Source of the DNA: an uncultured SAR86 cluster bacterium | GTDB taxonomy: Bacteria > Pseudomonadota > Gammaproteobacteria > Magnimaribacterales > D2472 | DNA length: 64,000 nucleotides | Direction: 5' to 3' | NCBI GenBank assembly: GCA_902541175.1 | Contig: CACBPP010000002.1 | Span: forward strand, 14,581-78,580 | Shown here: positions 7,873 through 36,179 of the stretch, piece after piece | How the letters are laid out: each line of letters begins with the position of its first letter | How positions within the stretch are numbered: position 1 is the first letter of the stretch | Notes under the pieces: model-generated | The model's input: the letters and a program-made list of their open reading frames with translations, nothing else | Told to the model about the DNA's origin: nothing | The model's database searches: none | Made by a program: the position numbers and the translations under genes

Positions 7873-8616
7873 TTATTTCCTAATAATTTCTAAATATTTA
7901 GATATTGTTTCCTCAAAACCATAATGAAGAGAATCTACTACAATAGCATGTCCAATAGATACCTCATTAATATTACCCATTTCAACTAAATAATGTAAGT
8001 TATTTAGATTTAAATCATGACCTGCATTGATTTTTAAATTTAAACTTATAGCATGATCAATAATTTTTTTTATTTCGTCTATTATAGATAAATTTTTATC
8101 ATTTATAGCTTTTGCAAAAGCACCGGTATGAATTTCTATCAAATTAGCACCCATTTCAGCCGCATAGTCTACACCTTCAATATTATCAATAAATAAACTA
8201 ATTTGGGCATCATTTGAGTTTTCTTTAAGTAAAAGTATCAAATTTTTTAATTCTGAATCATGTGAACCAGAAGACCATCCATGATCAGAAGTAATTTGAT
8301 CAATAGCATCAGGAACTAAGGTTATTTGTTCAGGCTTTATGATTTCAGTCAATTCACAAAAACCAATGAATTCTTTATTTGGTTTCGAGAATGGATTTCC
8401 TTCAATGTTGAATTCAACACCCCTATCCTTTGTTAATTTAGAAATATTAATGACGTCATCACTAGTTGCATGTCTATGATCAGGTCTTGGATGAAGTGTT
8501 AATCCATCAACTCCAAGATCAATAGCCTTATTGGCAAAGTATTCTATTTGAGGATAATTCTCGCCACGTGCGTTTCTTAGAAGAGCAATTTTATTAAGGT
8601 TTACGCTTAATTTCAT
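7873..8616 (-). CDS. pdxJ: pyridoxine 5'-phosphate synthase
   Basis: LSVNLNKIALLRNARG, TLHPRPDHRH, EFNIEGNP, INAGHDLN, EVSIGHA. Confidence 0.93.
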   Translation of the reverse strand: MKLSVNLNKIALLRNARGENYPQIEYFANKAIDLGVDGLTLHPRPDHRHATSDDVINISKLTKDRGVEFNIEGNPFSKPNKEFIGFCELTEIIKPEQITLVPDAIDQITSDHGWSSGSHDSELKNLILLLKENSNDAQISLFIDNIEGVDYAAEMGANLIEIHTGAFAKAINDKNLSIIDEIKKIIDHAISLNLKINAGHDLNLNNLHYLVEMGNINEVSIGHAIVVDSLHYGFEETISKYLEIIRK

Positions 8617-21055: not shown

Positions 21056-21260
21056 AAATAAAAACCCCCATCGAAATGGGGGTTATAAACTAACTCTCGT
21101 TAACTACAATTGTTAGCCGGAAACTAAAAAATTACCCCTGTCAAAAGGTAAATCCTCCGTTTCCTGTTGTTAAATAAATACTAATAGGACCACCTCCATG
21201 TTCAGGGTAGTAATAAACATATTTAGCAATCCCCTTAAAAAATCACTAAATAAGACACTC
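21056..21260 (-). ncRNA. candidate structured small RNA or small-peptide transcript (contains 16-codon ORF 21170..21220)
   Basis: ~240-nt gap in a dense genome; TATAAT at 21272-21267, several G-U-rich hairpins, multiple GGA motifs, terminator at end. Confidence 0.45.
21063..21084 (-). terminator. intrinsic terminator
   Basis: AACCCCCAT-CGAA-ATGGGGGTT stem followed by TTTATTTT on minus strand. Confidence 0.85.
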
Positions 21261-21307
21261 ATATAAATTATATACGCAATAGTTGGTAAATAAAGACTTA
21301 TTTAATA

Positions 21308-21526
21308 CTAAAATGAAAACTCTAGTTGAGACTTTGGTTCAGTGAAATCGTTATTATATGAATTGTTAACTGTTTCATATGTATTATCACTAAGATATTC
21401 CTCCAAAAGCCCTACATCGCCATTAAAAAATTTAAAAGCTAGCATTTTTTTTGCAGAATTCTTGTCTACAGATGAGTTTAGTTCCATCAAAATTGGATCT
21501 TTATTTAAGTAAATTAAATTATTCAT
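21308..21526 (-). CDS. 72-aa hypothetical, LexA-box controlled, C-terminal clamp-binding-like motif QLEFSF
   Basis: ORF track plus promoter positioned at its ATG; no recognised family. Confidence 0.75.
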   Translation of the reverse strand: MNNLIYLNKDPILMELNSSVDKNSAKKMLAFKFFNGDVGLLEEYLSDNTYETVNNSYNNDFTEPKSQLEFSF

Positions 21527-21532
21527 TAAGTA

Positions 21533-21561
21533 ATTATACTGTATATTTATACAGTATACAA
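21533..21561 (-). promoter_or_regulatory. sigma70 promoter with embedded LexA (SOS) box
   Basis: TTGTAT-17 nt-TATAAT; TACTGTATATTTATACAGTA at 21537-21556 differs at one base from the E. coli consensus TACTGTATATATATACAGTA. Confidence 0.88.
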
Positions 21562-21565
21562 GATT

Positions 21566-22165
21566 TTAATCTTCTATCTTTGGGTCAACGATTAAGCGAG
21601 TATCTACAAGTGTTCTAAAAATTATCCATAATGCGGCTATTACAGCAGTAGCGCCAAGAAAATCACCAACTGCAAATCTGAAAACAGTAATCACACTAAT
21701 AGAGCTTATTGAATTAATAACTGATAGGATTAAATTTACCAACAACCCATTTAATAAGGATGAAACTATTATTACAAGATATAGAAATTTATAGTTTTCA
21801 AAATTAACCTCCTTGAAAAAAGAGAAGAATCCAGGTGTTGCTCTTGTCCATTTAACTAGCTCAACAGCAGCAACAACAGAAAATAATGAAGCGATTGCAG
21901 CTATTGACCAACCCTCCATATAGTCATTGTGGTGAATAAGAGCAGGGCCAGTTATTTCTGCTAAATATAAACCTGGTAGAGAGTGATATCTAAAAAAACA
22001 AAACATTAAAACTCTAGCACCATGAGGCAAATAACATAAACTTCCAACCCATTCACCGTTTGGATTCATATTTGCAATATCAAGAACTTGAAGGAAGTAC
22101 CAAACTGAATAGCAAAACATTGAAAATACGTATACGGTTATGGTTACTTTGATAGCATGAATCAT
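21566..22165 (-). CDS. MASE1-like stand-alone membrane protein
   Basis: About 6 TM segments; YLPHGARVL and GDFLG resemble MASE1 conserved stretches. Confidence 0.55.
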   Translation of the reverse strand: MIHAIKVTITVYVFSMFCYSVWYFLQVLDIANMNPNGEWVGSLCYLPHGARVLMFCFFRYHSLPGLYLAEITGPALIHHNDYMEGWSIAAIASLFSVVAAVELVKWTRATPGFFSFFKEVNFENYKFLYLVIIVSSLLNGLLVNLILSVINSISSISVITVFRFAVGDFLGATAVIAALWIIFRTLVDTRLIVDPKIED

Positions 22166-22183: not shown

Positions 22184-22489
22184 TTAATTAGCTAATATTA
22201 AATTAAATTCTCTTTTGTCTCCTTCTGATTGTTTAACTAGAACAAGATCTGCTAGTTCAAATTTTTTAATAGTTTTATAAACAGTTGATCTTGAAAATCC
22301 TGACGAATCAATAACATCACTTATGTTACATGTACCACAATTGGAAAGTTTCCAAGCAATAATATAATAAATTTTCTTTTCAGTTTCGTTATATGAAACT
22401 AAATTTAGGTCTTTTTCTATATTCCAAAGCATTTCTAAAATGCTTGTTAGGTTCTTTGAATAATTGCTAGGCATCATAAAATCATACAT
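22184..22489 (-). CDS. winged-helix (MarR-like) DNA-binding protein
   Basis: ISDVIDSSGFSRSTVYKTIKKF HTH, SEGDKRE wing. Confidence 0.75.
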   Translation of the reverse strand: MYDFMMPSNYSKNLTSILEMLWNIEKDLNLVSYNETEKKIYYIIAWKLSNCGTCNISDVIDSSGFSRSTVYKTIKKFELADLVLVKQSEGDKREFNLILAN

Positions 22490-22529: not shown

Positions 22530-22614
22530 GGAAGGTTGGCAGAGCGGTAATGCAGCACCTTGGAAAGGTGTCGTCGGTAACGGCGCGGGGGTTCGATTCC
22601 CTCACCTTCCGCCA
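22530..22614 (+). tRNA. tRNA-Ser(GGA)
   Basis: GGAAGGT/ACCTTCC acceptor, GCACC-TTGGAAA-GGTGT arm, long variable arm, CCA; TATAAT at 22511. Confidence 0.95.
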
Positions 22615-22650: not shown

Positions 22651-23091
22651 TTACATTTTAAAATTTACTTGATTAATTCTCTGGTTATCTACCATTCTTC
22701 TGATTTCTTCATATCCTTTTGAAATCTTATCAAGTTCTTCTTCGTCATCACCATATCTTTCAGCAAGTACTGCATTAACTGCATCATATTTCTCTTTAGT
22801 TTGTTCCATTGCAGCCATATTTTCATATTCAATGGTTAACCAAACATTTGGACTATTTGCTCCATCAGATACATAAACACCATAATCAACTATATGACCA
22901 AGTTCTTTTTGAACTTCAACAGATCTTACCCATGTTCTCTTTAAATTGACTAAATAATTATCAAGATAGTTTGCTTGAACATCAATAACAGTTAATTGAA
23001 TTTGCCTTTCAGATGGCTCATAGTCCTTCCAAATCTCTGCATATACATTTGATATTGAAAACGTAATAACAAGTAACAATATTTTTTTCAT
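22651..23091 (-). CDS. secreted hypothetical protein (possibly dimeric alpha-beta barrel)
   Basis: Signal peptide MKKILLLVITFSISNVYA; typical codon usage. Confidence 0.7.
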   Translation of the reverse strand: MKKILLLVITFSISNVYAEIWKDYEPSERQIQLTVIDVQANYLDNYLVNLKRTWVRSVEVQKELGHIVDYGVYVSDGANSPNVWLTIEYENMAAMEQTKEKYDAVNAVLAERYGDDEEELDKISKGYEEIRRMVDNQRINQVNFKM

Positions 23092-35264: not shown

Positions 35265-36179
35265 ATGAACATTTTATGGGTTAAGGACAATAATATTGGA
35301 CATGAAAAGCAAGTAAAAAATCTACTTGATGAAATTTCCAAGAAAATTGATCTACATATTGATGAGAGACTTGTAAAAGGGTTTTTTCCTTTTTTCACAT
35401 ATTTAGAAAACGTTGAAGAAAAAAAATATGATCTAATCATTGGAGCTGGTCATAAAACTTACTCATTAATATTAGATACTAAAAAGAATCAAAAGAGTGA
35501 AACAAAATCAGTAGCAATTCTTTCTCCTACTTTCAACAAAGACAAATTTGATCTTATTTGTGCTCCCAATCATGATAAAGACAAATTTAAAAAAACTGAT
35601 AATGTCATTTTCTTTGAGGGATCAATTGCAAAAGTATCAGATAGTGAAACTGATGAAAATATAGTTTTAATTGCGGTTGGTGGTAAAAATAAACATTACT
35701 ATTTTGATGAAGATCATATCATTGCTCAAGTTAATTATTTTATATCTGTTCACCCAAATAAAATTTGTTATATTTTTAATTCAAGAAGAACGCCCCCCTC
35801 TACAAATCAAAAATTAAAGTCACTACAAGATATATACAATAATATTAAGTTTTTTGATTTCAATCATGGCTCAAGTGATTTTGAAACAACTTTAAAAAAT
35901 GCAAACTCTAAATTGATAACTAGGGATAGCGTTAATATGGTTTTTGAAAGTCTCTCTTGCAAAGGTAAAACATACCTAATGGATATGAAAAAAATTAGGA
36001 GCTCAAATAAGGTAGTAAAAGTTATTGATAGTCTTATTGAGAATAAAAAAATTGGTTTTATTGATTGTAGTGATATCACAGATGGTGTGTCTAAAATGAA
36101 ACTTCAAAAACAAAATATTCATAATGAAATTTTTGCTGAAGTTGAAAAAATTTCATATAAATTATTAAAACTAATATGA
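35265..36179 (+). CDS. ELM1/GtrOC1-like putative glycosyltransferase
   Basis: GHEKQ, IIGAGHKT, DLICAPNHD, NSRRTP, TRDSVNMVFE. Confidence 0.78.
   Translation: MNILWVKDNNIGHEKQVKNLLDEISKKIDLHIDERLVKGFFPFFTYLENVEEKKYDLIIGAGHKTYSLILDTKKNQKSETKSVAILSPTFNKDKFDLICAPNHDKDKFKKTDNVIFFEGSIAKVSDSETDENIVLIAVGGKNKHYYFDEDHIIAQVNYFISVHPNKICYIFNSRRTPPSTNQKLKSLQDIYNNIKFFDFNHGSSDFETTLKNANSKLITRDSVNMVFESLSCKGKTYLMDMKKIRSSNKVVKVIDSLIENKKIGFIDCSDITDGVSKMKLQKQNIHNEIFAEVEKISYKLLKLI

Follow-up and report, generated by a model that had tools for sequence, protein, structure and literature searches.

A predicted LexA-regulated protein of 72 residues with a clamp-binding-like tail in SAR86 bacteria

In the bacterial SOS response, RecA that has been activated by DNA damage removes LexA from the genes that it represses. 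Among these genes umuDC has a near-consensus operator, and its product UmuD2C slows replication when it is made. The meeting point of many replication and repair proteins is the beta sliding clamp, DnaN, whose partners bind its cleft by short peptides of the form Q-phi-x-L-F (QL[S/D]LF) or Q-phi-x-L-x-L, with positions 1, 4 and 5/6 critical (bioRxiv 10.64898/2026.05.27.728225). Examples are the C-terminal QVELEF of the E. coli Pol III alpha subunit, the QLSFF of B. subtilis MutS, which has Phe at position 4, and QLELF (bioRxiv 10.64898/2026.05.27.728225); a C-terminal QLxLF is typical of clamp partners such as transposases (PMC4549789). Two small, non-enzymatic toxins, SocB of the Caulobacter SocAB pair and RipA of the S. 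pneumoniae RipAB pair, are proposed to occupy the partner pocket of DnaN and thereby to disturb replication (PMC12795458). We have analyzed a gene that combines features of these systems, situated in a 64-kb stretch of DNA from an uncultured SAR86 cluster bacterium (contig CACBPP010000002.1; the window in what follows). The gene encodes a protein of 72 residues, its promoter contains a near-perfect LexA operator, and its product ends in QLEFSF, a peptide that resembles the clamp-binding motifs. In our reading, to which we assign a probability of about 0.5, it encodes a LexA-repressed, SAR86-restricted, minimal protein that would bind the beta clamp and act mainly by occupying the cleft. A literature search found no report of a small LexA-regulated clamp-binding protein, and a search of the literature and supplements returned none that ties SAR86 to LexA or to the SOS response.

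Operator, promoter and start of the gene

The DNA upstream of the gene reads cTTGTAT-ACTGTATAAATATACAG-TATAAT-TACTTA-ATG on the minus strand; coordinates of all features are given in Table 1. The preliminary description of this locus had placed a LexA box with 19 of 20 matches between TTGTAT and TATAAT, with a 17-bp spacer, and reading of the sequence bears this out: the spacer is 17 nt long and the operator 20-mer agrees with the E. coli LexA consensus, TACTGTATATATATACAGTA, at 19 of 20 positions. The core pattern CTGT-N8-ACAG occurs only once in the window, at the operator, with 0.40 occurrences expected for so loose a pattern. The 20-mer with up to 3 mismatches likewise has a single match, with 0.01 expected from shuffled sequences. 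Because the operator occupies the spacer and overlaps both hexamers, LexA bound there would exclude RNA polymerase. The near-perfect match to the consensus implies that repression would be tight, which would suit a product whose constitutive synthesis does damage.

Upstream DNA was compared for 15 syntenic SAR86 loci (L001-L015), in which the identity of the protein falls to 55%, and for the distant loci L016, L017, L018, L019, L054 and L113; the distant members are about 40% identical and their C-termini differ. The full LexA box is kept in 21 related loci, and in L018 the end of the contig cuts the box. Wherever the upstream DNA is complete, the box, the overlapping -10 hexamer and the distance of 6-8 nt from this hexamer to the start codon are conserved, while the flanks have diverged. 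The match to the LexA consensus is 19-20 of 20 in every lineage (perfect in L011-L013 and L017), the variants being TACTGTATA[A/T]ATATACAGTA, TACTGTATATATATACAGTA and TACTGTACATTTATACAGTA. Among the orthologues the -35 hexamer takes the forms TTGCAT, TTGTTT, TTTACT and TTGACT, and the -10 hexamer the forms TATAAT, TATTAT, TATAGT, TATATT and TAAAAT. The neighbouring genes are different in L113, L017 and L016, so that the box and the 72-residue gene constitute an autonomous unit; the L017 contig starts only ~40 nt upstream of the gene. In one of the syntenic loci (L006, SAR86 AG-891-I20) the protein is 100% identical to that of the window, the -35 reads TTGTTT where the window has TTGTAT (window position 21557), and the gap between -10 and ATG differs in sequence; the window therefore derives from a genome close to that of L006 but distinct from it.

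The same operator is found in front of recA. The identical 20-mer, TACTGTATAAATATACAGTA, is upstream of recA in L146 and L147; in L146 (contig CACHRR010000001.1 of assembly GCA_902582355.1) it lies 14 nt before the recA ribosome-binding site. This assembly is among the 732 environmental genomes that a recent study tabulates as putative SAR86 (PMC11582366, Table S2). Since the recA gene of a putative SAR86 genome carries the identical 20-mer, the site upstream of the 72-residue gene is identified, by sequence comparison, as the SOS operator of the lineage. A variant, TACTGTATAAACATACAGTA, precedes recA in L140-L143, and a comparison by tblastx found no overlap between the window and the recA loci. 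In the recA genes of this putative SAR86 single-cell genome and of very abundant marine relatives, the latter on closed contigs of ~1.25 Mb, one or the other of these two boxes is seen between the promoter and an AAGGAG ribosome-binding site.

A metagenome scan with the pattern TACTGTAT-N6-ACAGTA yielded at least 120 loci. In marine contigs of low GC it showed the same box upstream of recA and of an umuD-like gene; lexA was seen only in high-GC contigs among the matches listed. From the conservation of the operator we infer that lexA is present in SAR86. A locus of this kind (L050:2290-2756), on a marine contig of 35% GC, has a perfect box, TACTGTATATATATACAGTA, 18 nt upstream of a gene for a 142-residue UmuD-like S24 peptidase. 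Whatever the function of the 72-residue protein, these comparisons define a SAR86 SOS operator with two regulon members, recA and the gene analyzed here.

The A of the start codon (21524-21526) is the 7th base after the -10 hexamer. In 21 of 22 loci the -10 hexamer and the start codon are 6-8 nt apart, although the sequence between them varies; in the exception, L018, the ATG follows directly after the box. Transcription is thus likely to begin at or adjoining A21526 and to give a leaderless mRNA. The preliminary description had reached the same prediction from the distance of 7 nt and from the lack of a Shine-Dalgarno (SD) motif. The positions and the absence of the motif stand, but the argument from that absence is weak and was dropped: an SD-like motif (-22 to -4) is present in 11 of the 62 long open reading frames (ORFs) of the window and missing from the other 51. 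With SD absence uninformative, the leaderless prediction is drawn solely from the conserved gap. A -10-like hexamer is located 4-9 nt before the start of 10 of the 62 genes, with a background of 5.6% at random positions, and a perfect TATAAT also precedes the genes at 7873-8616 (minus strand) and 35265-36179 (plus strand). Leaderless or SD-independent initiation appears to be common in SAR86, whose genome is SD-poor and probably rich in leaderless genes.

The protein family and its C-terminal tail

The minus-strand ORF translates to MNNLIYLNKDPILMELNSSVDKNSAKKMLAFKFFNGDVGLLEEYLSDNTYETVNNSYNNDFTEPKSQLEFSF and ends in KSQLEFSF, as had been reported before. G+C content of the window is ~31%. A family profile run against species-representative genomes matched the gene in ten genomes, all of which are titled SAR86 cluster bacterium, SAR86A included. 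Homologous clusters at 90% identity number 158 in a single-sequence search and at least 685 in a profile search; nearly all are exactly 72 residues long, come from marine metagenomes and are labelled 'hypothetical' at best. When 1.84 billion cluster representatives were searched exhaustively with the profile, only 50 matched, all of them from the 72-residue family. Pairwise ratios of nonsynonymous to synonymous change (dN/dS) between the gene and its orthologues are 0.07-0.15, indicating that the product is under strong purifying selection. A chance ORF is ruled out by the dN/dS of about 0.1 together with the 685 or more clusters of constant length.

No model in Pfam, NCBIfam or PHROG matches the protein. 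The best hit among PDB sequences has E = 0.38, which is not a match, and Foldseek searches of the predicted fold against the PDB and the viral folds of BFVD gave nothing below E = 0.89. A tblastn search of 50,697 phage genomes reached only E = 0.9. RecX, DinI, YebG, SulA and a phage protein are ruled out as identities by the absence of any family, PDB-sequence or Foldseek match. The theta subunit of Pol III (HolE) had been suggested initially by a local likeness (..AFK..YN.., ..EPK..) and by the common three-helix fold of ~75 residues, and was rejected, since hhalign of the family profile with a theta sequence gave a probability of 0.6% over 9 columns. The earlier view of the gene as an orphan that corresponds to no known SOS gene is therefore upheld by all of these searches. 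Judged from its sequence relationships, it is a genuine gene, confined to the SAR86 order (Magnimaribacterales) and outside every described family.

The predicted protein has three parts. An AlphaFold2 model built on a 34-sequence alignment places three helices in the N-terminal domain, with predicted local distance difference test (pLDDT) scores of 85-91 over residues 11-40. The conserved core pattern is DPIL.EL.SSVDK.SAKKMLAFKFFNGD...L..YL., and D10, P11, I12, E15, D21, K27, A30, F31, K32, F34, Y44 and L45 are invariant. The linker that follows is the fastest-evolving part of the protein, with a proportion of nonsynonymous differences (pN) of 0.24-0.54 and a length that varies in distant members. 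The tail is predicted to be non-helical, with a pLDDT of ~73-75.5, above the ~54 of the linker. No helix or strand is predicted over the motif in the window protein. A 38% identical homologue (P0154) has the same predicted architecture, with residues 52-72 non-helical and a 3-residue helical turn near the motif according to DSSP. Taken together, the predicted architecture and the conservation are typical of a short linear motif carried by a flexible tether.

The tail is identical in all of the 120 homologues listed, save for position 71 (S/T/I/F). Since its pN is 0 while the corresponding synonymous value (pS) is 0.65-1.17, with synonymous sites saturated, the tail is conserved at the protein level. 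Every one of the 34 aligned members has Gln67. Position 71, the fifth of the hexapeptide ('x5'), is the only tail position that varies among close homologues and is S, T, I, F, R or A across the family. Distant members alternate between hexapeptide forms (QLEFSF, QLELSF, QLEFTF and QLEFRF) and pentapeptide forms (QLELF(-S), QLAMF, QLELL, QLELI, QPELF, QPELI and QPELM). Some members continue past the motif (QPELFSENRCS, QPELLH), which disfavours recognition of a C-terminal carboxylate and a terminal degron. QLEFSF itself conforms to Q-phi-x-phi-x-phi, its positions 4 and 6 being Phe rather than Leu.

On these grounds, binding of the protein to the clamp through its tail is somewhat better than an even prospect. 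The preliminary description had called the tail clamp-binding-like and had proposed a replication brake or polymerase switch. Its idea of a clamp motif has been strengthened by the invariance of the tail and by the series of penta- and hexapeptide variants; the co-conservation of box and motif in homologues, which it had offered as a check, is found in the box kept at all complete loci and in the invariant Gln, and nothing that it had named as a refutation was encountered. Clamp binding and a role as brake or switch remain inferred.

Neighbouring genes and a structured RNA

Downstream, between the 72-residue gene and a gene for an EamA transporter, lies a separate structured RNA, ~200 nt long and highly conserved. 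The same element is present in L001-L015, L019 and L054. Its 35-nt core, ACCCTGAACATGGAGGTGGTCCTATTAGTATTTAT, is identical or differs by one base in every SAR86 locus save L054, which has a 1-nt insertion, and in L019 and L054 the core is conserved though the adjoining protein is only ~40% identical. The RNAalifold structure has 55 pairs, with 98.3% of cells paired, a value that drops to 45-56% when the partners are slid, and five compensatory pairs are found (0 of 500 shuffles). The element contains five GGA motifs. Against Rfam it gave no hit at the gathering score or at E <= 10 apart from terminator hits. A peptide reading of the region was rejected in favour of an RNA, as the 9-codon ORF inside is not conserved in length. 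The element could be a small RNA, possibly of the CsrA-sponge type, or a riboswitch-like leader of the EamA gene. Its terminator ends 12 nt before the EamA ATG. No terminator separates the end of the 72-residue ORF from the structured RNA, so that transcription from the SOS promoter probably continues into the latter.

The genes for the 199-residue membrane protein and the MarR-like protein, upstream of the SOS promoter, are again found together in L016 and L054. In L019 the MarR-like gene is found alone, and both are absent beside the 72-residue gene in L113; the two probably form a separate unit. Near the tRNA-Ser(GGA) gene, no integrase and no repeat suggestive of an island was seen. Beyond it, a 146-residue protein (22651-23091, minus strand) has a signal-peptide-like N-terminus and ends in ...QVNFKM, which fits the permissive form of the clamp motif almost certainly by chance.

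Table 1. Positions of the 72-residue gene, its predicted control elements and protein segments, and nearby features (window coordinates unless a locus is named)
Feature	Position	Strand	Remarks
-35-like hexamer TTGTAT	21556..21561	minus	3/6 to TTGACA; read from sequence
Predicted LexA (SOS) operator TACTGTATAAATATACAGTA	21537..21556	none (palindromic)	fills spacer, overlaps -35 and -10
-10 hexamer TATAAT (perfect)	21533..21538	minus	begins with the final two bases of the LexA box
6-nt gap TACTTA	21527..21532	minus	between -10 and ATG
72-residue protein-coding gene with stop	21308..21526	minus	ORF, homologous clusters, dN/dS
Three-helix domain (predicted)	21374..21496	minus	codons 11-51; helices 11-18, 22-33, 38-51; AlphaFold2
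Variable linker, predicted disordered	21341..21373	minus	codons 52-62; pLDDT ~54 (49-56), residues 52-55 < 50
Invariant tail EPKSQLEFSF	21311..21340	minus	codons 63-72; pN = 0
Clamp-binding-like hexapeptide QLEFSF	21311..21328	minus	codons 67-72, C-terminal six residues
Conserved structured RNA, ~200 nt	21056..21260	minus	own -10 TATAAT at 21267-21272; alignments, structure, covariation
Intrinsic terminator AACCCCCATTTCGATGGGGGTT and T-run	21063..21084	minus	first terminator downstream of SOS promoter
Gene for 199-residue multi-pass membrane protein	21566-22165	minus	no Pfam, NCBIfam or PHROG match
Gene for 101-residue MarR-like winged-helix protein	22184-22489	minus	upstream of 199-residue gene
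tRNA-Ser(GGA)	22530-22614	plus	between MarR-like gene and 146-residue gene
recA-upstream TACTGTATAAATATACAGTA	L146:2967-2986; also L147; L116:5260-5279		

Possible roles and relation to known systems

In the proposed mechanism LexA would sit on the promoter of the 72-residue gene, and cleavage of LexA, stimulated by RecA after DNA damage, would open it. Transcription would then start at the A of the ATG or at an adjacent base, giving a leaderless mRNA. QLEFSF would dock in the hydrophobic cleft of DnaN, with Phe70 and Phe72 in subsite I and Gln67 in subsite II, and by occupying the cleft the protein would compete with Pol III, with Hda and with partners that act in repair. The outcome would be a transient brake on replication, or a re-programmed clamp traffic, while the damage persists. 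Cleft occupancy is favoured because the 72-residue protein has no catalytic domain. A sharper version, which we hold only tentatively, is that of a dedicated LexA-controlled clamp inhibitor: a 'plug' of 72 residues, translated from a leaderless mRNA almost as soon as LexA is cleaved, that would stall or re-programme replication at the DnaN cleft. The SOS replication checkpoint of SAR86 would then consist of a clamp-binding motif with nothing more than a three-helix handle, and would differ from SulA, which concerns division, from UmuD2C, which is built of polymerase subunits, and from the clamp poisons of toxin-antitoxin systems.

Several observations weigh against this reading. A consensus promoter scan of the window does not list the promoter of the gene, because TTGTAT has only 3 of the 6 bases of TTGACA; the -35 is weak and the promoter is a prediction from sequence. 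The window does not contain lexA, as judged by tblastn of the window with an E. coli LexA sequence (best E = 1.1). Phe at position 4 of the motif is unusual. A permissive form of the motif is found within the last 9 residues of 3 of the 137 ORFs of the window (~2%), so that a match in a single sequence means little and the case rests on the pattern of conservation. As the pLDDT of the tail (~73) exceeds that of the linker (54), the tail may pack onto the helical domain and be conserved for structural or autoinhibitory reasons. Finally, the evidence does not distinguish a competitor for the clamp from an adaptor on it.

This last alternative, an SOS-induced adaptor whose tail tethers it to DnaN and whose helical domain recruits a translesion polymerase, a nuclease or RecA to stalled forks, draws on the same regulation and motif as the reading that we prefer. 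The invariant charged and aromatic surface residues of the domain (D21, K22, K27, A30, F31, K32, F34 and Y44) exceed what a spacer needs, and suggest that the domain does something beyond holding the tail. There is a precedent in ImuB, an SOS-induced, non-catalytic protein with a clamp-binding motif (PMC10421592). ImuB brings DnaE2 to the clamp. No partner gene is linked to the 72-residue gene, however; its neighbours differ between lineages, and neither a relative of the domain nor a match to its fold was detected. The adaptor is the main variant of the clamp reading, but an unlikely one.

Only slightly less doubtful is the chief alternative that does without the clamp, an SOS checkpoint effector with another target, for example FtsZ or the divisome, as for SulA, or the RecA filament, as for DinI and RecX; the tail would then be a degron for Lon or ClpXP or part of the fold. 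The classical small, tightly repressed SOS proteins inhibit division or modulate RecA and are cleared by proteolysis via their termini: SulA is degraded by Lon and UmuD by ClpXP. The ~2% background of the motif and the higher pLDDT of the tail, compatible with docking onto the domain, are in keeping with such an effector. Degrons are usually degenerate, yet the Gln is invariant at ~40% identity and the variation that does occur tracks the positions tolerated in clamp motifs; in addition, the motif is not at the exact C-terminus in the distant members with extensions, and the protein has no similarity to SulA, DinI, RecX, YebG or theta. It is very improbable that the palindrome is instead the operator of the MarR-like protein encoded two genes upstream, with no tie to DNA damage. 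MarR proteins do bind palindromes of 16-20 bp, and a MarR-like gene is found upstream in the window, L016, L019 and L054. This explanation would not account for a LexA consensus match of 19-20 of 20 in every lineage, for the identical 20-mer before recA, where no MarR gene is linked, or for L113, which has the box and the gene but no MarR neighbour within 2.7 kb upstream. L017, with so little upstream sequence, has no bearing on this point.

If the tail does bind DnaN, the protein would be the smallest known SOS effector that acts on the clamp and the first dedicated non-enzymatic clamp binder directly under LexA control. It would also reveal a damage checkpoint in a streamlined genome of 1.1-1.6 Mb, in bacteria that are abundant in the sunlit, UV-exposed surface ocean. 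SAR86 can now be cultured, as strain HIMB1674 (PMC11582366), and since the operator is of the E. coli consensus type, E. coli LexA and beta could serve in initial experiments. Within the family, penta- and hexapeptide variants of the clamp motif occur naturally on a single scaffold, which bears on questions of motif specificity (bioRxiv 10.64898/2026.05.27.728225).

The E. coli SOS proteins that use the clamp (Pol II, Pol IV/DinB, Pol V/UmuC and UmuD2C) resemble the 72-residue protein in being repressed by LexA and in having a short Q-phi-x-L-F or Q-phi-x-L-x-L peptide, often C-terminal. They are polymerases or their subunits, catalytic and hundreds of residues long, whereas the 72-residue protein has no enzymatic domain and no similarity to them in sequence or fold. 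SocB and RipA are closer in kind, being small and non-enzymatic and directed at the pocket that we propose for the SAR86 protein. Unlike it, they belong to toxin-antitoxin pairs in which control is exerted by ClpXP or an antitoxin instead of LexA, and no homology to them was detected; SocB triggers the SOS response, whereas the gene described here would be induced by it. No gene for a cognate antitoxin or adaptor is conserved beside the 72-residue gene among the loci compared, and the gene is monocistronic with its own promoter. ImuB, of mycobacteria and many proteobacteria, is likewise a damage-induced, catalytically inert adaptor with a clamp motif (PMC10421592), but has a Y-family polymerase fold of ~500 residues and is encoded in an imuA-imuB-dnaE2 cassette, which is lacking at the 72-residue gene. 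DinI, YebG, SulA, TisB, DinQ and RecX of E. coli are also small, LexA-regulated modulators of the damage response; the 72-residue protein has no family or fold match to them, and none of them has a tail of the clamp-binding type. Hda works on the loaded clamp through a terminal hexapeptide motif (QLSLPL), but is an AAA+ protein with the motif at its N-terminus and is not SOS-regulated. Homologous to no such group, the 72-residue protein of SAR86 would thus be, on the comparisons made here, a clamp partner under SOS control that is pared down to a motif on a handle.

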